DNA of 64,000 nucleotides, taken from assembly GCA_963764725.1 (NCBI GenBank), contig CAVXTM010000012.1:1-64000 (forward strand). The letters run 5' to 3'. Source of the stretch: an uncultured Gammaproteobacteria bacterium. GTDB lineage: Bacteria; Pseudomonadota; Gammaproteobacteria; JACCXJ01. The notes under the pieces were generated by a model. It had not been told where the DNA came from and searched no databases. It was given only the letters and a program-made list of their open reading frames with translations. How positions within the stretch are numbered: the stretch's first letter is position 1; every line of letters begins with the position of its first letter. Made by a program: the position numbers and the translations under genes. Shown piece by piece: positions 3,251 to 35,823 of this stretch.

Positions 3251-3782
3251 GACGTCTACCATTCCCCGGATTGCAAACCGTCGTGACGGGCGGCGATACC
3301 TGCCGGAAACACGAGACGCCGCCGTTTTTATACGCGACAGCATAGCGACAACGCGATCAGTTTTCAGCCGCTTGACAAACGACCATCGATCGATCTCGCC
3401 TTATGACGCGGTTAACACGGTTACGTGGCGCGAGGCATTGAACTTTGCCAGGCGTCCAAGGTCCGACTAGGGAAATTCGCCGTGATGACCGCATTGCGAG
3501 CTGAGATACACCAATAATTACGCACCGCTACCATCCTGACGAACCCGCCCTTTGGCATATTCGAGTCCCCCACTGCGGTGCTTATGGTCATAAAGAACAT
3601 GCCCGAATTTGACCGATGCAGCACCGGCCGTATTACGCAGGCAGCGAATACCACTCGAGCAGCGTTCCTGGAAGAATGTTGCGGAAGCGCAGTGTGATAC
3701 TGCGCATGCGTTGAACGGCCCGCTATCGAACAGGACCCCGATTGCGGGCCGGCTTATCTATCCACCATCAGGAGGCCATCGT

Positions 3783-4043
3783 ATGAAAAATATTAAGGGC
3801 GTTTTATTGGCCACGGCTGCTGCGGCGTTATTCGTGAGCCAACCCATACTGGCGGAAGACGTCCACCCCGTCGCCGAAGGTAAGGTAAGATGTGGCGGCG
3901 TTAACGCGTGCAAAGGCACCTCGGAGTGCAATACCAAAGCCGATGTTAACGCCTGTAAAGGGAAAAACGCGTGCTCCGGACAAGGCTGGGTATCCTTGAC
4001 CAAGGAGGAGTGCGACGCCAAAGGCGGCAAAGTGACCGAATAA
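3783..4043 (+). CDS. Secreted 6-Cys bufferin (BufA2-like) precursor peptide
   Basis: AGGAGG RBS, Sec signal peptide, core CGGVNACKGTSEC..NACKGKNACSGQGW..EEC; lies directly upstream of DUF692 and DUF2063 genes. Confidence 0.85.
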   Translation: MKNIKGVLLATAAAALFVSQPILAEDVHPVAEGKVRCGGVNACKGTSECNTKADVNACKGKNACSGQGWVSLTKEECDAKGGKVTE

Positions 4044-4088
4044 GGGCTAGAGAGGTTGAGGCGGGGCCGGTTGGGCCCCGCCGGTCCA

Positions 4089-4961
4089 ATGCTCCCCACT
4101 TCGGAAAAGCGATTTCCGGCGCTCGGTTTTGGCCTCGGTCTCCGCAAGGAGCATTACGAAGTCGTCCTCGCCAGCCGGCCACCGCTCGGGTGGTTCGAAA
4201 TAGTCTCTGAAAACTTTATGGTGGCCGGCGGCAAACCCCTCGATTGCCTCGAACGCATCCGCGCCGTTTATCCGATCGTGATGCACGGCGTCTCGCTCTC
4301 CATCGGCGGGACCGATCCCATCGATGTAGGCTACCTCAAGCAACTCAAGACCTTGGCCGATCGCATCGAGCCCGCCTGGATTTCCGATCATCTGTGCTGG
4401 ACCGGTGTGAAACCCGTTAACCTGCACGATTTAATGCCCTTGCCTTACACCGCCGAGGCTTTGCATCATGCCGCGGAGCGCGTGCGGCAGGTTCAAGAGT
4501 ACCTGGGACGGCGGATCCTGCTGGAAAACGTGTCGAGCTACCTCGACTACCGCGCCTCGGAAATGCCGGAGTGGGAATTTCTCGGAGCCCTCGCCGAGGA
4601 ATCCGATTGTCTGCTTCTGCTCGATATCAATAACGTGTACGTCAGCGCCTGCAACCATGCGTTCGATCCGTACACCTACATCGAACATCTGCCACCGACA
4701 CGGGTGCAGCAATTTCATCTCGCGGGCCATCGTGATTATGGAGCCTACCGCATCGATACTCACGACGAGCCCATAATCAATCCCGTGTGGGACCTCTATG
4801 GCAGGGCAATTACGCTTTTCGGCAAGTTGTCTACCATGATCGAGCGCGATGGTAATATTCCCCCGTTCGAGGACTTGCTCGCGGAGCTGGCGCAGGCTGA
4901 GCGGATCGCCACGCAAGCGCTCCCGCCGCACGATTCCTCGCGGGCCGTGGCGACCGGCTAG
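4089..4961 (+). CDS. DUF692 multinuclear non-heme iron oxidative enzyme (MNIO, BufB-like)
   Basis: GLGLR, HGVSLSIG, SDHLCW, LLENVSSY, LLDINNVYV, FHLAGH, IDTHD and IERD motifs. Confidence 0.95.
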   Translation: MLPTSEKRFPALGFGLGLRKEHYEVVLASRPPLGWFEIVSENFMVAGGKPLDCLERIRAVYPIVMHGVSLSIGGTDPIDVGYLKQLKTLADRIEPAWISDHLCWTGVKPVNLHDLMPLPYTAEALHHAAERVRQVQEYLGRRILLENVSSYLDYRASEMPEWEFLGALAEESDCLLLLDINNVYVSACNHAFDPYTYIEHLPPTRVQQFHLAGHRDYGAYRIDTHDEPIINPVWDLYGRAITLFGKLSTMIERDGNIPPFEDLLAELAQAERIATQALPPHDSSRAVATG

Positions 4962-4973
4962 GCTATCCGATCC

Positions 4974-5795
4974 ATGCCGAACCTGCGTGAGCTACAGCAA
5001 TCCATTCAAGCCTATGTGCTTGCGCGCTGCCCGGGCGCGCAAGTCGAGGTGCTGGCGAGCCCCTCGGTAAGCGCCGAGACGCGCCTCGAGATTTACGCCA
5101 ATGCCTATCGTGTACGGCTCCGAGAAGCTTTGGCGATCGACTTCCCCGCATTGCGGGCCATGGTCGGTCCGGAGCGCTTCGCTCATTTAGCCGCGGCCTA
5201 TACCGATGCCTATCCGTCCGGGCATTTTTCCATACGCTACTTCGGGCAGCACCTCCACGCTTTTCTCGCCTCGTCCGACGATTTCCGCAATGAACCTTGG
5301 CTTTCGGAACTCGCGGCCTTCGAATGGCGGCTGGGTGAGGCCTTCGATGCCGCGCATGCACCGCCCCTGACGGCAGAGCCGCTTGCCCAGCTTGCGCCCG
5401 CCGCGTGGTCTAACATCGGCCTCGTCCTGCACCCATCGGTGCGGCGCTTGGATTTGGGCTGGAATGTAGCCGAGATCTGGCAGGCCGCCGATCGCCATGA
5501 GACGCCGGGAACACCCCTCGCCTACCCGCACCCGCTGACGTGGCTAATCTGGCGTCAAGAACTGAAAACCTTTTTCCGCTCGCTGGAGCGCGAAGAAGCC
5601 TGGGCGCTCGATGCGGTCCACAACGGCACGCGCTTCGGTGATCTCTGTGAAGGGCTGTGCCGTTGGCTGCCAGAGCACGAGGTCGCTCAGCGTGCGGCAG
5701 GGTTTTTAAGACGTTGGATTAATGATCAGCTCGTGACGGCCATCGACGCCGAGCCTGGCTTGCCGCCGAATCACGCCCCGGTACAACCCCGGTAG
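4974..5795 (+). CDS. DUF2063 MNIO partner protein (BufC/HvfC-like)
   Basis: RLEIYANAYRVRLREAL..DFP and ELAAFEW motifs; follows the DUF692 gene. Confidence 0.9.
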   Translation: MPNLRELQQSIQAYVLARCPGAQVEVLASPSVSAETRLEIYANAYRVRLREALAIDFPALRAMVGPERFAHLAAAYTDAYPSGHFSIRYFGQHLHAFLASSDDFRNEPWLSELAAFEWRLGEAFDAAHAPPLTAEPLAQLAPAAWSNIGLVLHPSVRRLDLGWNVAEIWQAADRHETPGTPLAYPHPLTWLIWRQELKTFFRSLEREEAWALDAVHNGTRFGDLCEGLCRWLPEHEVAQRAAGFLRRWINDQLVTAIDAEPGLPPNHAPVQPR

Positions 5796-6697: not shown

Positions 6698-8146
6698 TTA
6701 TCTTCCGGTGCGATTTAACTTCGAGAGCCGATTGATGGCCTCCGTGGTCTTATCAGGAAGACGACCGCTGACGTTCTTCTTGCCCAAGCTCTTCTGCAAG
6801 GTACTAAACGTCGTAAGGGCACCGGCATAGTTACCAGCAAGTTCTTGAAAGCTTCCAACGAAGAACTGGTAAAGGTCTCGCTTGTCCTCGGAGACGGTAT
6901 CCTCAGGAAATAACCATTGGAAAGTCGCCAAGTGGTCCGTCGGCGACAGGGCAGCGAGAAATGATTGCTGCTCTGTCGCGATGAGCATGCGCGAGTAATA
7001 TATGTGCCACAAATTTGACCACCGAACCGAATAATCGCGTTCGTCTGGCGGCAGTGATTCGCTATTGAGGCGCATGTCGTTGACAACGCGAATCGCCTCG
7101 TCTTCTAAGGCTTCGATCCGGTAGTTCAGGAACGCGGCGAGCTGCATCCGGCGAACATATGGACGTTCCTTGCCAGTCGCAAGCGCACGCTCGAAATGTT
7201 GTTTCGCTTCGCCGAGCGATCCGTGTGAGGCCAAGATGTGAAATCCCGACATCGCATGGGCGTAGGTGTTCTTGGGATCGAGGGCAAGCGCCCGCCGATA
7301 AAATTGTTCCGGCTTGAGTCCTCCTTGACCCTCACGTGACTTGAGAAAATCCCCCCACCCCATGTGGGCAAAACAGTCAGCTGCGGGTAACTTGTCCGGT
7401 GAGACCGCACATCGGGACAGCGCCGGAAGGACCTCGTCCACAATCGCCGAGAAACTGCCCTTGCCGACAGTGATACGCACATTCTCCAACCATGCCATGG
7501 CCAGCTTAGCTTCGTTCTCATGGACCTCGGGATTGTCGGGCGCTAACAACCGGGCTTTCTCGAAAAGTCGCCAGGCGTCCTGGTAATGCCCGTTATCTTG
7601 TTGGATCTTCGCCTCACTAAATAAACGCCCCAACGCCGTACGCTCCACCCGGACTTGCTGATACCACCAGCCAGCCCCAGCGCCGACGATAGCCACCGCG
7701 AGGAGCACGAGCAGTTGCGCTCGATATCGTTGGACAATTCGTAGCCACCCAGACTTAGGTATCCGGTGGATCTCGGCTGCAATCGTCGCTGCAACGTTTC
7801 CTGATGGCTGAAGGACTGTCCCGGCACGGAGGTATGGAGGAATCTCGGCCTTTGGGGTCGGCATCGCCATTACCGAGAGCACATAGCCCCAAGGTCGGGG
7901 CCACTTGTGCTCCGCGAAATCCAACTCCGTCAAGGTATAACGGCCCGCGGTGACAGAGTGAGGGCTAATGAGGAAAACGAAGAGTTGACTATCTTCGATC
8001 GCTTCGCGAATCTTCGCGTTGTAAGCTTCGCCAGCAGCGAGAGCCGAGCGGTCGAAGAAGACCGTGTGATTTTCTGCCCGTAGCGCGAGCGCGATCTCCT
8101 TCGCAAGCTCGCTTTGTTCAGAGGCGTACGATAGAAAAATCTTCAT
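6698..8146 (-). CDS. TIR domain + single TM helix + TPR repeat protein
   Basis: N-terminal KIFLSYAS..VFFDR..YTLTEL (TIR_2 with catalytic Glu), hydrophobic LLVLLAVAIVGAGAGWWY, then TPR-like helices (YRRALALDPKN, FERALA). Confidence 0.85.
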   Translation of the reverse strand: MKIFLSYASEQSELAKEIALALRAENHTVFFDRSALAAGEAYNAKIREAIEDSQLFVFLISPHSVTAGRYTLTELDFAEHKWPRPWGYVLSVMAMPTPKAEIPPYLRAGTVLQPSGNVAATIAAEIHRIPKSGWLRIVQRYRAQLLVLLAVAIVGAGAGWWYQQVRVERTALGRLFSEAKIQQDNGHYQDAWRLFEKARLLAPDNPEVHENEAKLAMAWLENVRITVGKGSFSAIVDEVLPALSRCAVSPDKLPAADCFAHMGWGDFLKSREGQGGLKPEQFYRRALALDPKNTYAHAMSGFHILASHGSLGEAKQHFERALATGKERPYVRRMQLAAFLNYRIEALEDEAIRVVNDMRLNSESLPPDERDYSVRWSNLWHIYYSRMLIATEQQSFLAALSPTDHLATFQWLFPEDTVSEDKRDLYQFFVGSFQELAGNYAGALTTFSTLQKSLGKKNVSGRLPDKTTEAINRLSKLNRTGR

Positions 8147-8335: not shown

Positions 8336-8623
8336 CTGTAACATTCGGCGGAGAACCGGCAACGGCGATGGTACGGCATTTACGCTCCCCCTGCCCGGTC
8401 AACCTGCTTGCGCACCAGATTCTATACGGGTTGCCCGGACGTCGATGAAGCTACACATCAGGCCACCTAAATGACCCCTTCCCGCCCCCGCGCGGACCGC
8501 CGCATCACCGCCCTGCCCGTCCAATGAAGCAGGGCAGGTAGTTGTTACCCGTTGCGCTGCTACAATAATGATTTTGCGCAACCAGGCAGGCATTTCCCCC
8601 ACCCTTGCGATTGCAAAGGATCG

Positions 8624-9268
8624 ATGAAGCATAGAACCAACACGGAATGGCTGGAGGAGCTAGAGGCCCTGGACCCACTGCGGGAAGATGCTCTCAGGGA
8701 CCTCCGCGAGGGTATCTTGCGGGCAGCGCGAGCCTACCTGACAAAGCAGTTCGTGGGACGCGGCTCCTTGTCCGCCGAGGAGGCCCACCACCTCGCCGAG
8801 GATTGTACCCAAGAGACACTCCTTGCCATCCGTAGCAACCTGGCCGGCTTCCGCGGCGACAGTCAGTTCACCACCTGGGCCTATGCCATCGCGATACGCA
8901 CGGTGCTGGCGGATCTGCGCCGCAGGCGCTGGCAGAAGGTCAAGCGGGACCCGGAGCTCCTCGGGAAACAAACTCCGGCGTGGCCCCTGGACGCTTCGGC
9001 GCCAGGCCCAGACCGCAGTTTTCAGCAGCTAGAGGCATGGCGGATCTTGACGCGTCTCATCGAATCGGATCTCACGCCCAGGCAGCGCGCCGCGCTCGTC
9101 GCTCACGCCTTCGATGAAATGCCGCTCGATGAAGTCGCCGCCTGGCTGGGCACCAACCGCGATAACGTGTACAAGCTGCTGCACGACGCCCGCAAGAAGC
9201 TGAAACGTGCCCTCCTGGCGCGCGGCCTCACCTTGGCAGAGGTCTTAAAGATGTTCGCTATCGATTGA
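8624..9268 (+). CDS. ECF RNA polymerase sigma-70 factor
   Basis: Region 2 AEDCTQETLL..FRGDSQFTTWAYAIA; region 4 LTPRQRAAL..EVAAWLGTNRDNVYKLLHDARKKL. Confidence 0.92.
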   Translation: MKHRTNTEWLEELEALDPLREDALRDLREGILRAARAYLTKQFVGRGSLSAEEAHHLAEDCTQETLLAIRSNLAGFRGDSQFTTWAYAIAIRTVLADLRRRRWQKVKRDPELLGKQTPAWPLDASAPGPDRSFQQLEAWRILTRLIESDLTPRQRAALVAHAFDEMPLDEVAAWLGTNRDNVYKLLHDARKKLKRALLARGLTLAEVLKMFAID

Positions 9269-9436
9269 GCCAGTTCGGCCGCTGCAGCCACCCCGAGCCA
9301 TCAGTGAATATTGCACTGCGGATCTGTGACATTTTGCATAGAAATCGCCATCGCGAAAGGTTATACATGCGGGGCGGCTCGTCTTTAAAAAGTAGCACGT
9401 GCACCCAGCGTGATGAGTGGGGTTAGTGGCCCCGGG

Positions 9437-9462
9437 GTAAGAGCGGGGGCGCTCAAGACATC
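9437..9462 (+). promoter_or_regulatory. Putative ECF promoter (GTAAGA-N16-CATC) of the anti-sigma gene
   Basis: GTAAGA at 9437-9442 and CATC at 9459-9462; the same motif and spacing recur at 9730-9755. Confidence 0.6.
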
Positions 9463-9490
9463 CTATAAATCGGGATCGAGGACCCTTGTT

Positions 9491-9712
9491 ATGAAAAGGA
9501 AAGCATTCAAGCGATTGGTACATACCATCTTCGGCGCGGAAGAGGAAGAGTTAGTCTGCTCGGAATTCTTCCGCCAGCTGCCCCGCTATGTGGATCTCGA
9601 GCGATCGGGTCAGGACGCCGCTGCACTGCTCCCCAAAATCAGCCACCATATCCATCAGTGTCCCGAATGCGAGGAGGTATACAAAGCCCTTCGCGACGTC
9701 GCGGATAGCTGA
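9491..9712 (+). CDS. Soluble zinc-finger (ZAS/zf-HC2) anti-sigma factor
   Basis: LVCSEF..LPRYVD and HxxxCxxC (HIHQCPEC); follows the ECF sigma gene. Confidence 0.85.
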   Translation: MKRKAFKRLVHTIFGAEEEELVCSEFFRQLPRYVDLERSGQDAAALLPKISHHIHQCPECEEVYKALRDVADS

Positions 9713-9729
9713 GGCACTCAGTCCATCAC

Positions 9730-9755
9730 GTAAGATCCGTCCCTCTTATCGCATC
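9730..9755 (+). promoter_or_regulatory. Putative ECF promoter (GTAAGA-N16-CATC) of the multicopper oxidase operon
   Basis: GTAAGA at 9730-9735 and CATC at 9752-9755, 55 bp before the MCO start; same spacing as the 9437 copy. Confidence 0.6.
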
Positions 9756-9810
9756 TAATCGGCAGCGGGAAAGACCCGCGGTCGGTTTTCCACAAGAGGA
9801 GAAAGATGCG

Positions 9811-10785
9811 ATGACGAGACCAACGGTCCCGCTGGGGATCGCCTTCCTCGTGGCGCTGTCCCTGACGATCGTGCGCAGCGCACCGTCGGCACAGGCGACG
9901 GAGGGCGGCGATACCCACGTGATCACCATCCAGGCCGGCGCCCTCCCCTCCGGCCAGCTCGCCTACCGGATGGTCAGCCACAAGATCAAGACTGCGGGGG
10001 GCGGCGAGGCCGATCGCACTGATCGCTACTACGCCGGTCCCACGATCCCTGGCCCAACCATCATCATTAAGGAAGGCGATACCGCGGAGGTGACGCTGGA
10101 ACACGGCATCGCCGAGTCTCAGCAGCCGGTCAGCATCCACGTCCACGGGGTGCATTACAAGGCCGACAGCGACGGCACCATGAAGGTGTTGAACGGGCTC
10201 AAGGATGAGGCCGCCTTCCCTGGCCAACCCTACACGTACAAATGGACCGCTGCGCCGGGCACCGCCGGCACCTGGGCCTACCACGACCACGCCTTCGGCA
10301 ACCCTATGGTTGGGGCCGAAGACAAGGGCTTGTACGGCACGCTGATCGTCAATCCTACCGACGGTAAGGTGCGGGCCATGATCGACGGCAAGCACGTGGA
10401 CGTCGCTGTGGCCGATATCAAACGCGAATTCATCCTGTGGATGCACGAGACCACCTTCTGGGGCATGGAGGTCAACCACATCCTGAAGGGCAAGCAGGTC
10501 CCGCTCTGGACCAACCCGACGGTGGGCGCACGTTTAGGCGAAAAGGTCAGATTCCACGTCATCGGCCTGGGCACGGCCTTTCATACCTTCCATCTGCACG
10601 GACACCGCTGGTTGGAGTCCGGCACCACCAGTGTCATCGACACCGCCAACCTCGGCCCCATCGGCCGCCAGAGCTTCGTAGTCGAGGCCGGTGAGGGCGT
10701 GGGGCCGGGTGAATGGCACTACCACTGCCACGTCATCCAACACATGCAGTCCGGGATGATGGGCGACTTCCGGGTCGTTGAATAG
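9811..10785 (+). CDS. Secreted two-domain multicopper oxidase (SLAC-like small laccase, type B)
   Basis: Signal peptide; copper motifs IHVHG, YHDH, HTFHLHGH and YHCHVIQHMQSGM, with the T1 site in domain 2. Confidence 0.9.
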   Translation: MTRPTVPLGIAFLVALSLTIVRSAPSAQATEGGDTHVITIQAGALPSGQLAYRMVSHKIKTAGGGEADRTDRYYAGPTIPGPTIIIKEGDTAEVTLEHGIAESQQPVSIHVHGVHYKADSDGTMKVLNGLKDEAAFPGQPYTYKWTAAPGTAGTWAYHDHAFGNPMVGAEDKGLYGTLIVNPTDGKVRAMIDGKHVDVAVADIKREFILWMHETTFWGMEVNHILKGKQVPLWTNPTVGARLGEKVRFHVIGLGTAFHTFHLHGHRWLESGTTSVIDTANLGPIGRQSFVVEAGEGVGPGEWHYHCHVIQHMQSGMMGDFRVVE

Positions 10786-10813
10786 CGCTACCGATCAATA
10801 ACAGGAGAGAACC

Positions 10814-12640
10814 ATGCACAGCAACTACAAGTTTATCGCCGCGATCGCGGCCTTGAGCTTTGTTTCCACTCAAGCGGCCGAGCCGGCCACCGCCGAACCC
10901 AAAGAAGAAGACGTCATCATAAGCCGGCCGGGTGTGCTACCCGCCGCGATACTGGAGATGACCGACGAGCCCGGCAAGTGGTTCAAAGACCCCAAGGACG
11001 GCGACTCGCTGGTGGCCGTGAAACCGGGCGAGGCCGTGCTGATTAAAATGACGGACACCAACACCGAACACACCATCACCAGTCTCTTTTGGCAACCCGG
11101 CGCGGCCAAGTTTCCCGTGGATCAGGACAAGGTGTCCAACAGCAGCGTGGCCCAGACCTTCGACAAACCGGGGCTCTATGTCTTTACCTGCAAGGTCCAT
11201 CCCTACATGTTCGGCGCGGTCGTGGTCGACGACCCGGAAACCGAGGGATTGGACATCGGTGCCGAGATCCAACTTGTGACCGGGGTCAAGGTCCCGACCA
11301 GCAGCGATATCGCCAAGAAATTGCTGCGGACCTTCTTCGTAGCAACGACGCCCACCCTGTGGCGCGACTATGGCAAGCCGACCTGGGAGGTGAAGCTCCC
11401 CGATCTGTTGTTGAACCTGGGCGGCACCGTCATCAAGCTAAGCGCATTGGACGTCAGCGCACCCAACAAGCTCAACAATCCCAAGACGCCAGGGATAGGC
11501 GAGGTCTGGGTCAACACCCAGTTCGAGACCATCAGCGGCAAGACCAAACCAGGCTCCGCGACGCAAATAGACGCCTCGACGTGGACCATCAAACAGAAGG
11601 TCAAAGGGGTTGAGCATAACATGAACAACCCGCACAACATGTGGACCGACGCGAGCTACAAGTACATCTACCAAACCGAGTGGTTCGACAAACGGCTCAC
11701 CACCTTCGACCGCGAATCCGGTAAGGTCTACGGCACACAGACGGTCGGCATTAATCCCTCGCATGCGATGTCTAACCCCAAGAACGGCATGCTCTATGTC
11801 GCCATCAACGGTGAGGAGAGCGTGGTCAAGCTGACCCCGGGCGCCTCGCCCACGGCAATGGGCGCCATCAACGTCGGCACCCACAGCGGTCCCCACGGTC
11901 ACCACATCACCGACGACGGGAAATACATGATCACGCCGAATGCCCTCGCCTCCAGCGTCTCGGTCGTGGACCTCGCGAGCGAAGAGGTGACGCAGATACC
12001 TACCGGCGGGGTCATTCCCATCGCCGCCTGGAGCGACATGAAGCACAAGGCCTATGTCGCCAATCTACTCGGTACGCCGCCTGACATGCTGGCCTCGTTA
12101 TCGGTGATCGACCTCGATGCCAAGAAGAAGGTGAAGGACATCAATATCGCTTCGGATTACGACCCGATCAGTGGTGACCACAAGGGCGAGGCCTACGGAC
12201 TGCTGCCGATCCAAACCCCCGTCAGCCCGGATGGTAAGTACGTGGTCACGGCCAACACCCTGAGCGGTACGATCACTATTCTGGATACCGCCACCGACAA
12301 GGTCGTGAAGAGCCTGCCCTGCGAGCCCGGCTGCCACGGCGTCAACTTCGGGCTGAAGAAAGATGGCGGTTACTATGCCTATGTCGCCAGCAAGTTCGCC
12401 AACGACCTCATCGTCATCGACATGGACAAGCTCGACATCACCGGCCGCATTTCGCTCGCCGATCCGAAGGACGCCCAAATCACGGGGAACAACGGCATGG
12501 GCGGACAAGGCGTGCTGCCCTTACCGCTGGCCGAGCACGGCATGCTCGCCCCCACCCTCAAGCTTTCCGGCACCGGCAAGCTGAGCCCCGAGGTCGAGGC
12601 CTGGCTCAAGCTCATCACCAAGAACCAGCGCGGTAGCTGA
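10814..12640 (+). CDS. Secreted type-1 cupredoxin + YVTN/YncE-like beta-propeller protein
   Basis: Signal peptide; EHTIT...YVFTCKVHPYM blue-copper ligands; propeller blades (LYVAING, VSVVDL, YVANL, VSPDGKYVVTAN, AYVASK). Confidence 0.8.
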   Translation: MHSNYKFIAAIAALSFVSTQAAEPATAEPKEEDVIISRPGVLPAAILEMTDEPGKWFKDPKDGDSLVAVKPGEAVLIKMTDTNTEHTITSLFWQPGAAKFPVDQDKVSNSSVAQTFDKPGLYVFTCKVHPYMFGAVVVDDPETEGLDIGAEIQLVTGVKVPTSSDIAKKLLRTFFVATTPTLWRDYGKPTWEVKLPDLLLNLGGTVIKLSALDVSAPNKLNNPKTPGIGEVWVNTQFETISGKTKPGSATQIDASTWTIKQKVKGVEHNMNNPHNMWTDASYKYIYQTEWFDKRLTTFDRESGKVYGTQTVGINPSHAMSNPKNGMLYVAINGEESVVKLTPGASPTAMGAINVGTHSGPHGHHITDDGKYMITPNALASSVSVVDLASEEVTQIPTGGVIPIAAWSDMKHKAYVANLLGTPPDMLASLSVIDLDAKKKVKDINIASDYDPISGDHKGEAYGLLPIQTPVSPDGKYVVTANTLSGTITILDTATDKVVKSLPCEPGCHGVNFGLKKDGGYYAYVASKFANDLIVIDMDKLDITGRISLADPKDAQITGNNGMGGQGVLPLPLAEHGMLAPTLKLSGTGKLSPEVEAWLKLITKNQRGS

Positions 12641-12728
12641 ACCACATAGCAGACCTCCGTCGTAGGGCCCCGCTTGGCACTCGGATTTCTCTCGACGCTC
12701 GTCCAGTGAGCGGGCGTTTTGTCGGACT

Positions 12729-21114: not shown

Positions 21115-22140
21115 TTATCCAATACCGCCGTTAATGCCAATCACCTGGCCGGAAATATAGCTTGCGTGCTCCGAAGCCAGAAACGCGATCAAGTGGGCCA
21201 CCTCTTGGGGTGTGCCGGCGCGTTTCATCGGCACTAAGGCTTCGATCTGCGCGGGTTTGAAGGCACGTTCGATCATCGGCGAGGCGATGATCAGGACGTC
21301 ACCGGCATATGCATTGGCACTAAACCCGAAAAACCACCCGGCAACGACCCCGGTGGCAATCCCACCGACCAATCCGCCAAGAACACCGCCAATTGGGTCG
21401 GCGAACTTCCACAATCGAGATTTCCCACGCTTCCCGACTGTACGGAGCCACGAAACTATTCCCATCACCCAGGCTCCCAAAGCGCCCCAATAGATGGAGC
21501 TAAAGAGACAAACCCAGCTTACTAATGCCGGCGTGACCTTTGGATCGAGCGCCCGGTACTGGAAGTAATAGGTCACTCCGATGATCAGACCGGCAACCAA
21601 CCCACCCAGGCAGCCACCCATCAGCCCGCCAATGATCGGACGAAAAGAACCCAGTCCGTTGAGTGTGGGCGTAAAGCGGATGTCGCTCTGTACATCGAGA
21701 TGCGATAGAGATCTGCTAATTGTATTCTGCTCCGCGGATGTGTAGTCCTGCACACGTGCCGTGATCTCGCTCAGTAAGCTCTTTAATTCCGGGTGTTCCC
21801 GCTCGCCGTGCCAATCTACAAGGTTCACGGTGTGTAGCTGGCCGAATCCGAGTGGTATCTCCACCGCATCGATCAAAGCTGGCACCAGAACCTCCCGATT
21901 CTTGCCTACCTCAGCTTCATCCCGCACCCAACCAGATCCACGGGAAGCCTTGGACCAAAGCACGACCACGCACTTCGCCACCGAAAGGGCTGCCTGAATC
22001 TCCTCTTCCAGGTCGTGCCCAGGGCGAAGTTTGGGGTCCCACCAAACTGTCAACCCCGCGTCCATGAGCACTTTAGCAAGGCACTTGGCACGTGTCCGGT
22101 CTTCTCTAGCGTAACTAATGAAAACGTCGCTCATGATCAC
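21115..22140 (-). CDS. Chimeric ORF: TIR domain + Gly-rich TM helices fused in frame to a FabG C-terminus
   Basis: DVFISYAREDR..VWWD..SGWVRDEA (TIR); the last ~58 aa (IIASPM..VPMKRAGTPQEVAHLIAFLAS..YISGQVIGINGG) are an SDR/FabG tail. Confidence 0.8.
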   Translation of the reverse strand: MIMSDVFISYAREDRTRAKCLAKVLMDAGLTVWWDPKLRPGHDLEEEIQAALSVAKCVVVLWSKASRGSGWVRDEAEVGKNREVLVPALIDAVEIPLGFGQLHTVNLVDWHGEREHPELKSLLSEITARVQDYTSAEQNTISRSLSHLDVQSDIRFTPTLNGLGSFRPIIGGLMGGCLGGLVAGLIIGVTYYFQYRALDPKVTPALVSWVCLFSSIYWGALGAWVMGIVSWLRTVGKRGKSRLWKFADPIGGVLGGLVGGIATGVVAGWFFGFSANAYAGDVLIIASPMIERAFKPAQIEALVPMKRAGTPQEVAHLIAFLASEHASYISGQVIGINGGIG

Positions 22141-22226: not shown

Positions 22227-23132
22227 CTAAGCCTCTGTGAAGTAGTCGGAGTCGATCTTCTTAATCTCGTAGGAGGCGACCGATGAAACACCGACACTAT
22301 GATCGATCATCAGCTGCGCGAGTAACTCTCCGTCAATCAGGATGATCTTGCTGTCAATCCGGGAAACGTATTCCTCCGCATCCTTGGAAAAGCATGATGT
22401 CGTAATTAAGATGCCCTTTCTCGCGCGATGGCCTTGTAGCGCCCCCGCAAACTTCTGAACCTCAGGGCGTCCGACCACCCCATCCCAGCGTTTCGCCTGG
22501 ATATAGATGATGTCCAAGCCAAGCCGGTCTTCCTTGATAATACCGTCTATTCCATCATCGCCACTTCTTCCGACTGCTCTTCCCGCATCCTGCCGAGTAC
22601 CGCCGTATCCCATCTTCACGAGCACATCCACAACCAGACGCTCAAAGAACGCGGGCGAACAGCTCTTAACAGTTTGGAGGATTTCGGCAACCAAACTCTG
22701 CCTGACCTTTTGGTAAGCGGTTTCTAACGATTCCTCAGGGGTTTCCTTGGATGGCTCTAACGCTTCCTCTGAGGGCGCCGGCTCCCTTCGAAGAGAACGG
22801 AACTCCACGAACTCGGAAAATTGTTCTAGGAACGAGACATTAATCTTTGGAGGATTCTTCTCCAGAACCTGAAGTCCGCGCGGGGTTATGCGGAAATAGC
22901 CTCGTCGGGGTGATTCCAAAAGACCGGCCTTTTTCATATAGGTGCGAGCCCAGCCGACACGGTTATCGAAAGTCGGCTGCCGGCCGCTGGGCAGTAATTC
23001 CTTTTGCTCTTCTTCAGTGAGTCGAAATTCAGCCACCAAGACCTCAATGGCCTCCCGAAGAGAATGCTCCTGCATGTCGCCAGCCAAGCGGAGTAGCGGC
23101 AACATGATGGATTCGTAGTCTGGAATGGCCAT
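22227..23132 (-). CDS. mrr: Mrr type IV restriction endonuclease
   Basis: MAIPDY, NRVGWARTYMKKAGL, DDGIDGII..DRLGLD.IYIQAKRW and IDSDYF. Confidence 0.95.
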   Translation of the reverse strand: MAIPDYESIMLPLLRLAGDMQEHSLREAIEVLVAEFRLTEEEQKELLPSGRQPTFDNRVGWARTYMKKAGLLESPRRGYFRITPRGLQVLEKNPPKINVSFLEQFSEFVEFRSLRREPAPSEEALEPSKETPEESLETAYQKVRQSLVAEILQTVKSCSPAFFERLVVDVLVKMGYGGTRQDAGRAVGRSGDDGIDGIIKEDRLGLDIIYIQAKRWDGVVGRPEVQKFAGALQGHRARKGILITTSCFSKDAEEYVSRIDSKIILIDGELLAQLMIDHSVGVSSVASYEIKKIDSDYFTEA

Positions 23133-32523: not shown

Positions 32524-33276
32524 ATGTCTCCAACAATCAGAGCCAGAAATCTTGCTATTATCGTGACCGCCACGGCTCTATCCGTGACGGCGCCAACCGC
32601 GTCTTCGAATGAGGAGCTCATCCGCTTGTCTCCAAGCGATGAGAATTGGGTGATGCAAGTGCAAGGATTACGTGCGCGCACTACAGCAAAATGACGGATA
32701 TAAAAGCGGACAATGTCGAGCGGCTCCGGCCCGCATGGAGCTTTTCGACTGGCGTGTTGCACGGTCACGAGGGTGGGCCGCTCGTCGTGAACGGCATCAT
32801 GTATATCCACACGCCATTCCCCAATAATACTTTTGCTTTCGACCTCGAGAGACCGGGAGAGATCCTATGGGAGCACAAGCCCAAGCAAGACCCAGCGGCG
32901 CGCGCGGTGGCCTGCTGCGACGTCGTCAACCGCGGTCTGGCCTACGCCGACGGCAAGATTTTCAAAACCCTATTGGACGGCCACATCGTGGCGCTGGACG
33001 CCAAGACGGGGAAAGAGATCTGGAAGATGGAGAACTCCGATATCAGGGTAGGCTCGACGCTTACCGTTGCACCCTTTGTGGTGAAGGATAAGGTTCTAGT
33101 TGGATCGTCAGGCGCTGAGCTCGGGGTGCGCGGGTATGTCACCGCCTACGACCTCGACAGCGGCGAGATGAGATGGCGCTGGTACGCCACCGGCCCCGAT
33201 GAGGAGATGGGCCTGGCCCCAGACTTCAACGGTAAGAACCCGCATTACGGCCAGAAAGGATTGGGCCTCAAGACAC
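32524..33276 (+). pseudogene. xoxF: PQQ-dependent methanol dehydrogenase (XoxF2/MxaF-like), frameshifted and truncated
   Basis: AGGAGG RBS and signal peptide; indels near 32660; [33 protein letters not shown] and NPHYGQ.GLG. Homology ends after about 250 of the expected ~600 aa. Confidence 0.9.
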
Positions 33277-33292
33277 TGAGACTATCTGCTAC

Positions 33293-33408
33293 AGGAAGTT
33301 TTCCCACACAGGTGGGAATATGTACCCGGATAACATGTGAAGTTATCACACGCGAATTGCTGCTGAGGGACTCTATCGAAAAGGGGCTTTCGCTTGTAGA
33401 TTATGCGG
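33293..33408 (+). promoter_or_regulatory. Conserved upstream element, copy 2 (before the TonB-dependent receptor)
   Basis: AGGAAGTTTTCCCACACAGGTGGGA..ATGTGAAGTTATC..GAATTGC..GGGACTCTATCGAAA..AGATTATGCG. Confidence 0.75.
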
Positions 33409-33477
33409 CACAGAGCAAGCCGCCAAAGCCGCGAACAACAATGGCCTTCTGAGCATCGGCACCAATAATAACGTGAC

Positions 33478-35823
33478 ATGATGAGTCCAAGCCCCGTTTC
33501 ACGGAACCCACGTGCATTGATGCGTGCGGCCTATCTGGCGTCGATCCTGCCTCTTGTCTGGAGTTCCTCTCCCGGTATGGCGGAGGAGGGCGACGGGGAG
33601 GGCGAGAGAACGCGCGGTCCCGCCGGCGCGATCGAGCTGCCGGACATCGAGGTGATCGCGACCACGCCCTTGCCGGCGCTCGGCACGCCGATCGATAAGG
33701 TCCCGGCCAACGTGCAGTCGCTGACTGCCGAAGACATCGAGGAGCAGAACCCACTCGATCTTTCCGAGATGCTGTTCGACAACATCGGCAGCGTGAACAT
33801 CAACGCGGCCCAGAACAACCCCTTCCAGAACGATCTGGAATACCGCGGGTTCCTGGCTTCGCCGCTGGTCGGCAGCGCCATCGGCTTATCGATTTATATG
33901 GATGGCGTGCGCATCAACGAAGGATTCGGCGACACGGTCAACTGGGACCTGATCCCGCAGTCGGCCATCTCCAGCGTAGATCTCATCCCGGGCTCAAATC
34001 CGCTTTTCGGCTTGAACACGCTGGGCGGGGCGATCGCGTTACGTACCAAGAGCGGTTTCGCCTATCAGGGTACGGAGGTCGAAGCGAGCGGCGGCTCGTT
34101 CGCGCGCTGGGCAGTAGAGGCCGAGCACGGCGGCAATCATGACGGTTTCGACTGGTATCTCACCTTCAACGCGCTCGATGCGGACGGCTGGCGGGACGAG
34201 TCCCCTAGCGAAATCCGGCAGCTCTTCGGAAAGATCGGGTGGGAGGATGACCAAACCGATCTCGATCTCAGCTACATCTTCGCGGACAACGACTTGACGG
34301 GTAACGGCTTTGCTCCCGAGAGCCTGCTCGCCCAGGATCGCGCAGCGGTGCATACCTTTCCCGACGACACCGACAACAACCTGAACTTCCTGAATCTCAG
34401 GGCAAGCCACGTCTTCACCGATGCGTTGCTGCTGGCGGGCAATGCCTATTATCGAGGGTACCAACGCGATACCTTGAACGGCGATGCCGAGGTCCAGTGC
34501 GTGGATGAGGACGACAGCGCGATAGCGCTCGCGCTCGGGTTATGCGAAGGATCGGCCGCGCCCTTCGGCGGCGTCGGTGAGCTCGGGCTCGAGGTCGAAG
34601 GCGAGGACCGTACCACCCAGACCGACACCGACGGCTACGGCGGGACCCTGCAGTTGAGCCACCAAGCGACGTTCTTCGGGCGCGCGAACAGCTTGACTTT
34701 CGGTTTCGCCTATGACGGAAACGACACGGACTTCACCCAGAGCGAGGCCGAGTCGGAGATATTTCAGCAGGGCCTGGCCCGCGGCACCCGACGGATCGGT
34801 GAGCTTGAGACCGAGGTGGATGTCGCCACCCGCCAGGACAACTGGGGTATCTATCTGACCGACACCTTCGATATCACGGATGCCCTCGCGGCTACCTTTT
34901 CGGGTCGCTATCAGATCACCGAGGTCGAGATCCGCGATCAGACCGGCGATCCGGAAAACGCCGATCTCGACGGTGATCACCACTTCGATCGTTTCAACCC
35001 GGCCGGGGGTCTCACCTATTCGATCTTCGAGGATCTGAACCTCTTCGGCGGCTACAGCGAGAGCTTCCGGGCTCCCACTCCGGCAGAATTGACCTGTGCC
35101 GATCCGGAGGACCCTTGTAATCTGCCCAACGCCTTCGTGGCCGATCCGCCGCTCGATCCCGTGATCGGCAGGACCTGGGAGGTCGGCGCGCGCGGGCGCC
35201 TGCCGCTCGGCGAGGACCTGCGCTGGCGCGTGGCGTTCTATCGCACGACGCTCGAAGACGACCTCATCTTCGCCGTGACCGAAACGGGCGGCGCCGGGTT
35301 TTTCACCAATATCGACGAGACGCGCCGCCAGGGCGTGGAGCTCGGTTTGAATGGGCAGTGGGAGTCCGTGCATTGGTCGGTCAATTACGGGTTCGTGGAT
35401 GCGACTTATGAATCCGCCGAAACGCTGGCGAGCGTGGTCGAGCCCGACGGCATCCAGGTACAGGAAGGCGACCGCATCCCCGGTATTCCCGAACAAAACC
35501 TCAAGGTCAACGCCGACTGGGCTATCCTCCCGAAGTGGTCGGTCGGCGGCACGCTCATCTACGCCTCCGACCAGTTCCTGCGCGGCGATGACAGCAACGA
35601 GTTCGATACGGTGGATGATTACGCCATCGTCAACCTCCGCACCCGCTTTCATCCCTGGGAGCATATAGAGATTTGGGCGCGCATCGACAACCTCTTCGAC
35701 AGCGACTACGAGACCGGTGGGACCCGCAACTTCAATGCCTTCGCCGATCCGATCGCCGAGGAGCGCTTCCTGGCACCCGGGGGCCCGCGCGCCGGCTGGG
35801 TGGGCGTGAAGCTCCGGTTCTAG
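33478..35823 (+). CDS. TonB-dependent outer-membrane receptor
   Basis: Signal peptide, TonB-box-like DIEVIA, plug (YMDGVRIN..GSNPLFG), NLFD.DY and terminal Phe (VKLRF). Confidence 0.93.
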   Translation: MMSPSPVSRNPRALMRAAYLASILPLVWSSSPGMAEEGDGEGERTRGPAGAIELPDIEVIATTPLPALGTPIDKVPANVQSLTAEDIEEQNPLDLSEMLFDNIGSVNINAAQNNPFQNDLEYRGFLASPLVGSAIGLSIYMDGVRINEGFGDTVNWDLIPQSAISSVDLIPGSNPLFGLNTLGGAIALRTKSGFAYQGTEVEASGGSFARWAVEAEHGGNHDGFDWYLTFNALDADGWRDESPSEIRQLFGKIGWEDDQTDLDLSYIFADNDLTGNGFAPESLLAQDRAAVHTFPDDTDNNLNFLNLRASHVFTDALLLAGNAYYRGYQRDTLNGDAEVQCVDEDDSAIALALGLCEGSAAPFGGVGELGLEVEGEDRTTQTDTDGYGGTLQLSHQATFFGRANSLTFGFAYDGNDTDFTQSEAESEIFQQGLARGTRRIGELETEVDVATRQDNWGIYLTDTFDITDALAATFSGRYQITEVEIRDQTGDPENADLDGDHHFDRFNPAGGLTYSIFEDLNLFGGYSESFRAPTPAELTCADPEDPCNLPNAFVADPPLDPVIGRTWEVGARGRLPLGEDLRWRVAFYRTTLEDDLIFAVTETGGAGFFTNIDETRRQGVELGLNGQWESVHWSVNYGFVDATYESAETLASVVEPDGIQVQEGDRIPGIPEQNLKVNADWAILPKWSVGGTLIYASDQFLRGDDSNEFDTVDDYAIVNLRTRFHPWEHIEIWARIDNLFDSDYETGGTRNFNAFADPIAEERFLAPGGPRAGWVGVKLRF

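Follow-up and report, generated by a model that had tools for sequence, protein, structure and literature searches.

We describe a copper protein system in which a secreted protein of a methane-oxidising bacterium, P0001, joins a type-1 (T1) blue copper domain to a seven-bladed beta-propeller with conserved histidines, and in which the propeller gene directly follows the gene of a laccase-type multicopper oxidase, P0002. The domain architecture, the conservation of the residues concerned and the linkage to the oxidase, including its fusion to the propeller protein in relatives, were observed directly. We hold it about evenly balanced whether P0001 and P0002 together make up a modular periplasmic copper oxidase, with the propeller facing the substrate and the laccase as terminal module; that the propeller binds metal, that electrons flow in this direction and that catalysis takes place is what we infer from the sequences. 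The family looks like an undescribed copper oxidase system that is common to methanotrophs and nitrifiers.

The gene of P0001 lies at 10814..12640 on the + strand of the window, by which we mean the whole stretch of 64,000 nucleotides that was analysed; all features given below are on the same strand. The boundaries of the open reading frame (608 aa) match those of the initial annotation exactly, a ribosome binding site (AGGAG) is found 8 nt 5' of the start, and P0001 is present as a single copy in the window's genome. The AF2 model of the protein has an overall pLDDT of 89 and a pTM of 0.88. The N-terminus is a signal-like segment, and residues 1-40 have a pLDDT below 50 in the model. It is followed by the T1 cupredoxin domain (residues ~41-142, 10934..11239) and by a conserved linker (residues ~143-225, 11240..11488) that leads from cupredoxin to propeller and holds, among others, the invariant columns T143, G145, L146, D147, P161, S164, D165, L171, F175, W183 and W191 as well as one modelled helix (165-178, pLDDT 87-95). 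The propeller, of YVTN/lactonase type, spans residues ~226-571 (11489..12526). A C-terminal helical tail (residues 572-608, 12527..12637; modelled helices 578-584, 592-599 and 603-606) is shorter in a distant branch of the family. Downstream of the gene a terminator-like hairpin followed by a T run was seen at 12696..12716, as a pattern match only, where five such sites were seen in the region and 3.6 are expected by chance.

By its ligand set, His...Cys-x2-His-x2-Met, the N-terminal domain is predicted to be an amicyanin-like T1 cupredoxin. The four ligands H86 (11069-11071), C126 (11189-11191), H129 (11198-11200) and M132 (11207-11209), which had been read as a T1 site from the beginning, are invariant in 19 of 19 homologues, and of the 42 distant representatives with the four propeller histidines and no gaps in the T1 columns, 40 have the complete ligand set. 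The best solved match to the domain is the tethered cupredoxin of the three-domain nitrite reductase 6hbe (E 4.6e-5); the other nearest solved sequences are pseudoazurin, amicyanin and, at E 0.05, the pendant cupredoxin of 9cck_A. The T1 ligand loop is covered by the matches to pseudoazurin, to amicyanin and to tethered cupredoxins. The Pfam model Copper-bind (PF00127) scored 15.4 bits (E 0.026), which is below its gathering cut-off of 21.2.

The propeller was recognized by two curated models above their cut-offs, Pfam YNCE (PF21783, 38.6 bits against 27.1) and the YVTN repeat TIGR02276 (34.1 bits against 27.85). Seven four-stranded blades were seen in the DSSP assignment for the AF2 model, and VIA-align superimposed the model on the YVTN propeller 1l0q with a Z of 37.6 and an rmsd of 2.0 over 295 residues. 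All motifs singled out in the initial annotation are present, namely NNPHNMW (271-277), INPSHAM (313-319), SGPHGHH (358-364), LPIQTP (464-469) and CEPGCHGV (503-510), and its proposal of a T1 cupredoxin followed by a His-bearing propeller agrees with the domain matches, the AF2 model and the conservation. The placement of a histidine at the blade entry in four blades and of a glutamine in another was borne out by DSSP: H274 (11633-11635), H317 (11762-11764), H361 (11894-11896) and H508 (12335-12337) are residues +1 to +3 of the first strand in blades 1, 2, 3 and 6, and Q467 (12212-12214) takes the equivalent first-strand place in blade 5. In 1l0q, a solved YVTN propeller of the generic kind, the equivalent proline is followed in the alignment by M, Q, L and K.

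In an alignment of 19 homologues (46-80% identity), 119 of 608 columns are invariant. Six of the 14 histidines of P0001 are among them (H86, H129, H274, H317, H361 and H508), H363 (11900-11902) occurs in 18 of 19 sequences, and the remaining seven are kept in only 1-7 of 19; as judged from this alignment, histidine conservation is bimodal, beyond chance expectation. Q467 and C503 (12320-12322) are also invariant, C507 (12332-12334) is found in 18 of 19 sequences, and M276 follows H274 in all 19. Among 62 distant representatives, 50 keep all of H274, H317, H361 and H508; the other 12 consist of eight fragments that are gapped at those columns and four with substitutions, three of which also lack the T1 cysteine. 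The idea that the histidines of these motifs are conserved therefore stands for the four residues across the family, but not for H364, which occurs in only 5 of 19 homologues, nor in general for H363, which is kept in 27 of the 50 distant representatives with four histidines. The two cysteines behave as a unit, since both are present in 29 of these 50 and both replaced in 20 (one is gapped), which suggests a disulfide rather than metal ligands. By this alignment H363 and the pair C503/C507 characterise a subfamily. A conserved set of four histidines, with H363 added in the subfamily, points to a small mono- or dinuclear metal site and not to a seven-His cluster like CuZ.

P0143 is a full-length paralogue with 36% identity. 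Here the T1 ligands are replaced (C to D, H to A and M to T), three propeller histidines are changed to N, Q and S, and H508 to R, while the fold-level sequence persists. The T1 ligands and the propeller histidines have been lost together, and on the aligned residues this is a coupled loss.

The gene of P0002 (9811..10785, 324 aa) ends 28 bp upstream of the start of the propeller gene. Both domains of a two-domain oxidase were found above their cut-offs (PF07732, 57 bits, and PF07731, 47.9 bits, of the Cu-oxidase_3/Cu-oxidase_2 pair), the best solved relative is the small laccase 3t9w (E 4.2e-36), and the copper ligands H110/H112, H158/H160, H258, H261/H263, H305-C306-H307, H311 and M316 are invariant in 18 orthologues. 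With both domains and all T1 and trinuclear ligands in place, P0002 belongs to the SLAC-type two-domain laccases. Upstream of it lie the first two genes of the four-gene cassette, an ECF-type sigma-70 factor (8552..9268; Pfam Sigma70_r2/r4, TIGR02937 with 86 bits against 42.9) and a small putative zinc-binding (ZAS-type) anti-sigma factor (9410..9712). The latter was assigned by an H-x3-C-x2-C motif, HIHQCPEC in the translation, and by a weak match to RsrA (TIGR03988, E 5.7e-4) that at 19.9 bits does not reach the cut-off of 62.5; its true start may be 3' of the listed GTG.

The linkage to the oxidase extends well beyond the window. In 47 of 52 loci of the methanotroph branch the oxidase gene lies upstream of the propeller gene on the same strand; it is directly upstream in 47 of the 48 loci that have upstream DNA, as four of the five loci without the oxidase have none. 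Sigma and anti-sigma genes precede it in 20 of the 47 loci with the oxidase. In addition, the oxidase is fused N-terminally, with gene order kept (oxidase-cupredoxin-propeller), in 8 of 18 long representatives scanned, in all 58 homologues with a length of 1065-1339 aa and in each of three loci from the class to which a Nitrososphaera genome belongs. A search with the window's oxidase gave no oxidase gene next to the propeller gene in the 27 loci of the distant branch, and the neighbours vary by lineage. The oxidase is thus not an obligatory partner, and the electron direction may differ there; where it adjoins, often as a fusion, it indicates the likely direction of electron flow. The initial annotation did not mention the adjoining or fused oxidase, the sigma/anti-sigma pair upstream, that four histidines make up the conserved set, or the size of the family. 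An alignment-fed complex prediction of P0001 (41-608) with P0002 (30-324) returned a score of 0.00, which gives no verdict and is evidence neither way. Contigs of relatives (90-99% alike) from four runs labelled RNA-Seq or metatranscriptomic cover the stretch from sigma factor to propeller, and one contig of 1142 nt crosses the oxidase/propeller junction; the RNA status of these runs is a guess and DNA is possible, so the contigs were not counted as expression.

We propose the following path. P0001 and P0002 would be subunits made from two co-transcribed genes, with P0001 facing the substrate. A putative metal centre at one mouth of the propeller channel, formed by H274, H317, H361 and H508 and in the subfamily by H363, would most likely hold one or two copper ions and oxidise a small diffusible reductant. 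Electrons would then pass to the amicyanin-like T1 copper of the N-terminal domain of P0001, from there to the T1 copper of P0002 and on to its trinuclear cluster, where O2 would be reduced to water. In the window's lineage and in alphaproteobacterial methanotrophs the oxidase-propeller pair follows the genes of an ECF sigma factor and a zinc-type anti-sigma factor. This position suggests a stress-induced role in detoxification or scavenging, and not in core energy metabolism.

A search of one-genome-per-species collections of bacteria and archaea gave 580 matches, and 86 clusters at 50% identity were found with E <= 1e-30; the family is thus a large one. The gene tree contains a clade of 47 rows with 100% support, made up of Gamma- and Alphaproteobacteria (methanotroph-named or unnamed) and one MAG labelled as Betaproteobacteria, in which the alphaproteobacterial sequences are nested within the gammaproteobacterial ones. 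Nitrososphaera, Nitrospira, Methylomirabilis, Binatia, Acidobacteriota and Chloroflexota are placed in the other clade. The distribution is patchy: of 251 genomes sampled in the class of the Nitrososphaera genome 29 carry the family, and of 15 in the window's order 6 do (3 of 12 without three genomes flagged as unpublished). The window's genome has pmoA-type genes, and in an Angelobacter genome that carries the gene no CuMMO gene was found. As had been foreseen for automated pipelines, members of the family are annotated as YncE/YVTN, as lactonase-family or as hypothetical proteins. Our literature search found no paper on the family; a mention in the original MCO1-4 classification paper, the first L-NosZ paper or the supplements is possible.

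Several known systems share parts of this design. Copper propeller enzymes are rare and each has an unusual small-molecule chemistry, as NosZ reduces N2O and thiocyanate dehydrogenase oxidises SCN-. Thiocyanate dehydrogenase oxidises its small inorganic substrate in the hub of the propeller, at a copper centre with His ligands, and an external carrier takes up the electrons; it differs by its trinuclear centre with more ligands and is without a fused cupredoxin or a laccase partner. In NirK, as in 6hbe, a T1 copper exchanges single electrons with a catalytic copper that is held by histidines, but this catalytic copper lies between cupredoxin domains of the trimer and not in a propeller; the NirK model TIGR02376 had no match on P0001 and nothing over its cut-off in five genomes examined. 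Methylamine dehydrogenase is a periplasmic propeller enzyme of methylotrophs that hands electrons to amicyanin, which has the C-x2-H-x2-M loop also seen in P0001; there a small subunit of its own carries the quinone cofactor and amicyanin is free, whereas P0001 has fused domains and conserved histidines. The archaeal oxidase MCO4 (Nmar_1354, PDB 9CCK) resembles the present system in that a two-domain multicopper oxidase is connected to an additional T1 cupredoxin, and it is a precedent for a tethered T1 relay. According to PMC11761707, this pendant C-terminal cupredoxin has its copper 13.5 A from the oxidase T1, and the enzyme oxidises NH2OH with O2 consumption. MCO4 as described is without a propeller, and the available text of the MCO4 papers has no mention of 'propeller'; in the window, oxidase and cupredoxin are separate chains and it is the propeller protein that carries the cupredoxin. 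The match to 9cck is weak, with 7e-8 for the oxidase part of P0125 and 0.05 for the P0001 cupredoxin, while P0002 and the fused oxidase domains are much closer to actinobacterial small laccases (E ~1e-34 to 1e-36).

The fold on its own does not discriminate among these candidates. Among 48,161 chains compared with VIA-align, NosZ (2iwf) was matched with a Z of 31.1 (rmsd 2.7, 307 residues), selenium-binding protein with 30.6 and the seven-bladed thiocyanate dehydrogenase 5f75 with 29.0 (rmsd 2.6, 318 residues), but all of these fall in the Z 28-37 band of metal-free and WD40 propellers, so that fold rank cannot assign a function. The best 50 rows of a Foldseek search against the PDB held only generic propellers (YVTN S-layer, NirN/NirF, YncE and hydrazine synthase beta), and the family profile, run against PDB sequences, gave 34 matches at E up to 10, with neither thiocyanate dehydrogenase nor NosZ among them.

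Four other explanations have to be set against the copper oxidase reading. The propeller centre could be that of a NosZ- or NirK-like reductase, in which the T1 copper feeds the propeller, N2O, NO or nitrite is reduced and the laccase is separate or protective. L-NosZ (NF052460, clade III) is the best NCBIfam match of P0001, and the two share a lactonase/YVTN-type seven-bladed propeller, histidines at the starts of inner strands and a cupredoxin in one chain. An hhalign comparison of the family with L-NosZ gave 95.7% probability over 233 columns, in which H361 falls on H132 and H508 on H261, both invariant in L-NosZ (blades 1-2 are outside the aligned region), and BLASTP aligned the PHGH of P0001 with a PHGH of L-NosZ. 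Among neighbours in the ESM-Atlas at 0.90, to be taken as a lead only, are clusters with the nos_propeller Pfam family in 58-78% of their members. Yet the match to NF052460 is weak (56.3 bits against a cut-off of 700), canonical NosZ models fared no better (TIGR04244 and TIGR04246, 14.9 and 16.1 bits against 625), nos_propeller (PF18764) was not reported on P0001 at E up to 0.1, and no Nos accessory genes are present in the window's cassette. Identity with NosZ or L-NosZ by sequence was rejected, as scores were below cut-offs, and thiocyanate dehydrogenase gave no sequence match with the family profile at E up to 10. The resemblance to NosZ with opposite domain order and a T1 site in place of CuA, as originally noted, holds: an L-NosZ sequence taken for comparison has the propeller first and a C-terminal CuA motif (C-x2-F-C-x3-H-x-E-M), whereas P0001 has its T1 domain N-terminal and is without the CuA motif. 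CuZ of NosZ is held by seven histidines, against four or five conserved in P0001, and the partner of P0001 is an O2-reducing laccase, whose covalent fusion to the propeller protein makes a propeller site donating electrons more natural; we consider a reductase quite unlikely. Less likely again is that the four histidines bind Fe(II) or another non-copper metal in an oxygenase- or hydrolase-type site whose metal the T1 copper only redox-cycles, which we hold to be the most improbable of the four. Carotenoid-cleavage oxygenases hold Fe(II) by four histidines on the propeller axis, and the present set, from three consecutive blades and one opposite, with conserved Gln and Asn residues nearby, would fit such a geometry; but both partner modules are copper proteins, and no carotenoid oxygenase was matched in the best 50 fold rows or by sequence, which is no exclusion. 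The propeller might also bind no metal at all, its conserved His, Gln and Cys forming a surface for a ligand or protein, for example a dock for the laccase or the envelope, so that T1 copper would be the only metal of P0001. The closest solved propellers by sequence are indeed non-enzymatic or cofactor-free (the S-layer YVTN domain, hydrazine synthase beta and YncE), and archaeal MCOs have been proposed as cell-surface modifiers (PMC12448741). Against this, the histidines are invariant at equivalent strand starts of four blades in sequences of 35-80% identity and were lost jointly with the T1 ligands in P0143, and we regard it as improbable.

A role in copper handling is the strongest of the four, though still rather unlikely in our view. 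A mouth lined by His and Met (HNM, HAM) would bind Cu(I) as substrate or store, and cupredoxin and laccase would act as a cuprous oxidase in the acquisition or detoxification of copper by organisms with a high copper demand. In two papers (PMC7785015, PMC12448741), archaeal MCO4 oxidases show the strongest up-regulation of all genes in Nitrososphaera viennensis when copper is limiting, and a function as Cu(I) oxidases is discussed for them. Many hosts of the family rely on copper monooxygenases, M276 is strictly conserved after H274, and the cassette lies behind a stress-type ECF/ZAS pair, all of which fit this role. On the other hand, P0002 and the fused oxidase domains are SLAC-like and far closer to small laccases (E ~1e-34) than to Nmar_1354 (7e-8), the annotated loci have no copper transporter or chaperone as a conserved neighbour, and the family also occurs in Acidobacteriota and Chloroflexota, as well as in the Angelobacter genome without CuMMO. 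To our knowledge, cuprous oxidases such as CueO need no separate propeller. A copper-binding bufferin RiPP operon was observed 4.8 kb upstream in the window, which would favour copper handling, but a conserved link to it was rejected as the flanks of 79 of 79 related loci gave no match.

Returning to the modular copper oxidase, we tentatively place NH2OH or NO first among its candidate substrates, a possible choice if a doubtful one, followed by Cu(I) or another metal ion and then by reduced sulfur or small organics. A haem-NO-binding (H-NOX) gene adjoins the family gene in five Candidatus Angelobacter loci, which come from one lineage and so count as one event; together with the NH2OH precedent of MCO4 these neighbours are weak hints to N-oxides. 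A hydroxylamine oxidoreductase-type cytochrome (PF13447) was found in gene-carrying Methylocystis and Nitrospira genomes and not found in the window's genome (97% complete), nor in the Angelobacter and Nitrososphaera genomes. A complementary distribution with these cytochromes was rejected, as the five genomes show no pattern, and this leaves no simple pattern for NH2OH. A role as the core archaeal hydroxylamine enzyme was likewise rejected, since only 29 of 251 genomes of the class carry the family. The narrower proposal that the propeller holds a new His-ligated copper centre for NH2OH and/or NO, and with T1 copper and laccase forms a self-contained 'N-oxide oxidase', is speculative, and we consider it unlikely. 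It would, with the same low expectation, let methanotrophs dispose of the NH2OH or NO that arises from co-oxidation of ammonia by methane monooxygenase. In soil ammonia-oxidising archaea and Nitrospira it might, as an equally speculative extension, offer an accessory route to nitrite, HNO or N2O.

The family is concentrated in organisms that control soil methane and nitrogen fluxes, and it has been carried in databases under the YncE/YVTN, lactonase and hypothetical labels. The fusion with the laccase gives a concrete and testable electron path, for which substrate-dependent O2 uptake is an easy readout, and it suggests a reason why archaeal MCO4 should have its so far unexplained pendant cupredoxin. 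If the substrate is Cu(I), the system would bear on copper acquisition by methane and ammonia oxidisers, and if it is NH2OH or NO, on the N2O and NO that methanotrophs and nitrifiers emit. Should an N-oxide oxidase prove true, the copper-propeller enzymes would gain a third class in addition to NosZ and thiocyanate dehydrogenase, and nitrification chemistry a copper enzyme that has been missing.

The gene for the cupredoxin-propeller protein P0001 is a clean open reading frame of 608 codons (window:10814-12640, +), with an AGGAG ribosome-binding site 8 nt 5' of the start and, on its 3' side, a terminator-like hairpin (12696-12716, by pattern match only). Among sequencing runs recorded as RNA, none contained this stretch. 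Using an alignment of 19 homologues as input we obtained a confident AF2 model (pLDDT 89, pTM 0.88), in which a disordered N-terminus comprising signal peptide and spacer (residues 1-40) is followed by a beta-sandwich (residues ~45-138), then by a conserved linker containing a single helix, by seven four-stranded blades (residues ~226 to 571) and by a short helical tail. The sole domain called by Pfam was a YncE-like propeller (38.6 bits), and the blue-copper domain stayed below threshold (15.4 vs 21.2). Since the public names of relatives are likewise 'YVTN family beta-propeller', 'DNA-binding beta-propeller fold protein YncE', 'lactonase family' or 'hypothetical', the initial annotation was right that automated pipelines would call this protein merely YncE/YVTN.

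In a first alignment of 19 sequences with 46-80% identity to P0001, the type-1 (T1) copper ligands H86, C126, H129 and M132 and the propeller residues H274, H317, H361 and H508 were invariant, as were Q467 and C503, while H363 and C507 were each kept in 18 of 19. Of the propeller histidines pointed out initially, H364 is unconserved in this set; it is one of the seven other histidines of the protein, which were kept in just 1-7 sequences. We then used mafft --add at fixed length to bring in 62 cluster representatives (50% identity) reaching to E ~1e-22; with this procedure the alignment of the most distant rows may be imperfect. All four propeller histidines were kept in 50 of the 62 (eight were fragments and four were substituted), and their persistence here and in 19/19 of the first set makes a four-His core from blades 1, 2, 3 and 6 the family signature. 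Each of these residues lies at position +1 to +3 of the first strand of its own blade in the AF2 model, and sequence alignment places M, Q, L or K at the equivalent positions of a generic YVTN propeller. Among the 50 representatives H363 was present in 27, and the Cys pair (C503/C507) was complete in 29, replaced at both positions in 20 and gapped in one. Because the two cysteines are both present or both replaced, a disulfide would fit better than metal ligation.

The full T1 set was found in 40 of the 42 representatives with intact propeller histidines and ungapped T1 columns, and the T1 Cys was also missing in three of the four with substituted propeller histidines; these counts come from mutually related sequences and describe a pattern, not a statistic. 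A full-length paralogue, P0143 (651 aa, 36% identity over ~600 residues), lacks both the T1 ligands and H274, H317, H361 and H508 while retaining the Cys pair and fold-level sequence, and is perhaps a non-redox offshoot of the family.

Ending 28 bp 5' of the propeller gene is the gene for P0002 (9811-10785, +), a complete small-laccase-type multicopper oxidase with two domains (Cu-oxidase_3 and Cu-oxidase_2 in Pfam; E 4.2e-36 against 3t9w), whose T1 and trinuclear ligands are all invariant in 18 orthologues. Farther upstream are genes for an ECF sigma factor and for a small protein that has an H-x3-C-x2-C motif and weakly matches the RsrA type. We surveyed neighbours by tblastn with the window's proteins on 79 related loci from a genome collection. 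Of the 52 loci in the branch with 64-95% identity, 47 have the oxidase as the next gene 5' of the propeller gene, in the same orientation. Four others begin at the propeller gene without upstream DNA, and the last, L048, gave a partial match. The sigma/anti-sigma pair accompanied 20 of the 47 oxidase-bearing loci. Oxidase, cupredoxin and propeller also occur as one polypeptide in the same order as the genes, in 8 of 18 long representatives scanned, in 58/58 homologues of 1065-1339 aa, and in all three loci excised from genomes that share a class with a Nitrososphaera MAG. This fusion is the strongest functional evidence at hand that the laccase and the cupredoxin-propeller work together. Directly 5' of the fused gene, two of the three loci from the archaeal class (L084:5786-6853, L085:5356-6429) carry a further multicopper-oxidase-like gene, of ~355 aa.

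The window also holds a bufferin-type copper-binding RiPP operon (3609-5795, +), 4.8 kb upstream of the oxidase cassette, with a BufA2 precursor (NF050166, 80.6 bits vs cut-off 60), the MNIO maturase BufB (NF050167, 377 bits vs 310) and an HvfC/DUF2063-type partner; it was found in the flanks of 0/79 related loci. Three minus-strand genes (6698-8146, 21115-22140 and 22227-23132) are possible defence genes: two code for TIR-domain proteins, of which one has TPR repeats and the other a short-chain dehydrogenase-like tail, and one codes for an Mrr-type restriction endonuclease. A 268-aa ORF (32646-33452, +) matches the PQQ methanol/ethanol dehydrogenase model (530 positions) over just positions 31-208 and is a truncated or fragmentary gene; directly 3' of it is a TonB-dependent receptor gene (33478-35823, +).

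The genome-collection scan gave at least 580 encoding stretches, from which the 79 loci were retrieved, and 86 clusters reached E <= 1e-30 in a library of 50%-identity representatives. From 74 rows we built a quick maximum-likelihood tree, which omits six loci with a best HSP <450 aa (L003, L036, L042, L048, L049, L058) and resolved two clades, each with 100% SH-aLRT. The clade of 47 rows contains methanotroph-named or unnamed Gamma- and Alphaproteobacteria and one MAG labelled Methyloversatilis; that of 27 rows contains Nitrososphaera, Nitrospira, Terriglobia including Candidatus Angelobacter, Blastocatellia, Vicinamibacterales, Chloroflexota, Binatia, Methylomirabilis, one Betaproteobacteria MAG and one 'Patescibacteria' bin. 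Two MAGs group tightly with other taxa, L018 (labelled Methyloversatilis universalis) with Methylocaldum and L062 (labelled Patescibacteria) with Methylomirabilis, and are probably binning errors or recent transfers. In the larger clade alphaproteobacterial sequences are nested among gammaproteobacterial ones, and the former are the sister group (99%) of the small group with the window's sequence, which has the same sigma/anti-sigma genes; this indicates transfer of the four-gene cassette between classes of methanotrophs. The window's cassette (8552-12640) has the same sigma/anti-sigma/oxidase/propeller set as alphaproteobacterial methanotrophs (L004-L017).

The window's genome (4.2 Mb, 97% complete) carries the propeller gene in single copy together with pmoA-type genes. 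One pmoA/amoA-type match there (G000:C3:34673-35361; L082/L083) is in two adjacent pieces in separate open frames, at model positions 7-54 and 73-234; a frameshift, a divergent copy and an assembly error are all possible causes, and two further copies are intact. In the window's order the propeller gene occurs in 6 of 15 genomes of the collection, or 3 of 12 without those flagged unpublished (G466, G461, G468). A role as core nitrification enzyme is ruled out by the patchiness of the gene in the archaeal class (29/251 sampled genomes). No CuMMO gene was found in one Angelobacter genome bearing the propeller gene.

The best curated family for P0001 was L-NosZ, at 56 bits vs a cut-off of 700, and canonical NosZ models gave 15-16 bits vs 625. 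In the L-NosZ proteins fetched for comparison, from Nitrospirota genomes (2/201 above cut-off), the propeller comes first and the CuA loop is C-terminal. By these scores, and by its N-terminal T1 domain with no CuA motif, P0001 is neither NosZ nor L-NosZ. Nevertheless, the initial comparison to 'similarly placed' NosZ histidines was correct at the level of blade position, as hhalign of the P0001 family against L-NosZ (95.7% probability, 233 columns) set H361 and H508 on invariant L-NosZ histidines; BLASTP placed the PHGH blade of P0001 on that of L-NosZ in a register differing from hhalign. A structure search recovered NosZ (Z 31.1), selenium-binding protein (30.6) and thiocyanate dehydrogenase (29.0), but all three lie among many unrelated seven-bladed propellers (Z 28-37), and the fold gives no discrimination among propeller functions. 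By similarity, the blue-copper domain stands closest to cupredoxins that are tethered or pendant and to free pseudoazurin or amicyanin; the pendant domain of Nmar_1354 is among its matches. Nmar_1354 is described as a two-domain oxidase with an extra T1 site 13.5 A from the oxidase T1, oxidising NH2OH to HNO (PMC11761707).

We propose that the channel mouth would house a small, putative metal centre ligated by histidines, whose convergence is assumed from propeller topology. This centre would oxidise a diffusible reductant, and electrons would pass from it to the internal T1 and on to the laccase, entering at the laccase T1 and reaching O2 through the trinuclear cluster. The fused proteins have their modules in an order that matches the proposed path. 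The four-His core, with no Nos-type maturation genes in the window's cassette and no conserved accessory gene at related loci, argues for a simple mono- or dinuclear site and not a sulfide-bridged cluster.

Hints at a substrate among the N-oxides come from the MCO4 precedent (Nmar_1354), from the hosts and from an H-NOX neighbour. The H-NOX (PF07700) and V4R gene adjoins the propeller gene on the opposite strand at L064, L068, L076, L077 and L079, all from Candidatus Angelobacter and thus one lineage. Copper handling is hinted at by His-Met motifs and by the strong induction of archaeal MCO4 genes described at low copper (PMC7785015, PMC12448741). Neighbours in the distant branch differ by lineage, with radical SAM, DUF547 and a glycosyltransferase with DUF5666 in Nitrospira and a MEDS sensor domain in Nitrososphaera. 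In one Chloracidobacterium sp. genome (L073:4549-9349) the propeller gene is flanked by homologues of LuxE and LuxC, an acyl-protein synthetase and an acyl-CoA reductase respectively, with all three genes on one strand; for that single genome this is a hint of a setting related to aldehydes or alcohols.

Taken together, our results show that the cupredoxin-propeller family is real, strongly conserved and functionally tied to a laccase-type oxidase. In the literature covered, it is apparently undescribed. The candidate reading of P0001 as a new metalloenzyme, now with a defined, proposed electron path, is plausible.
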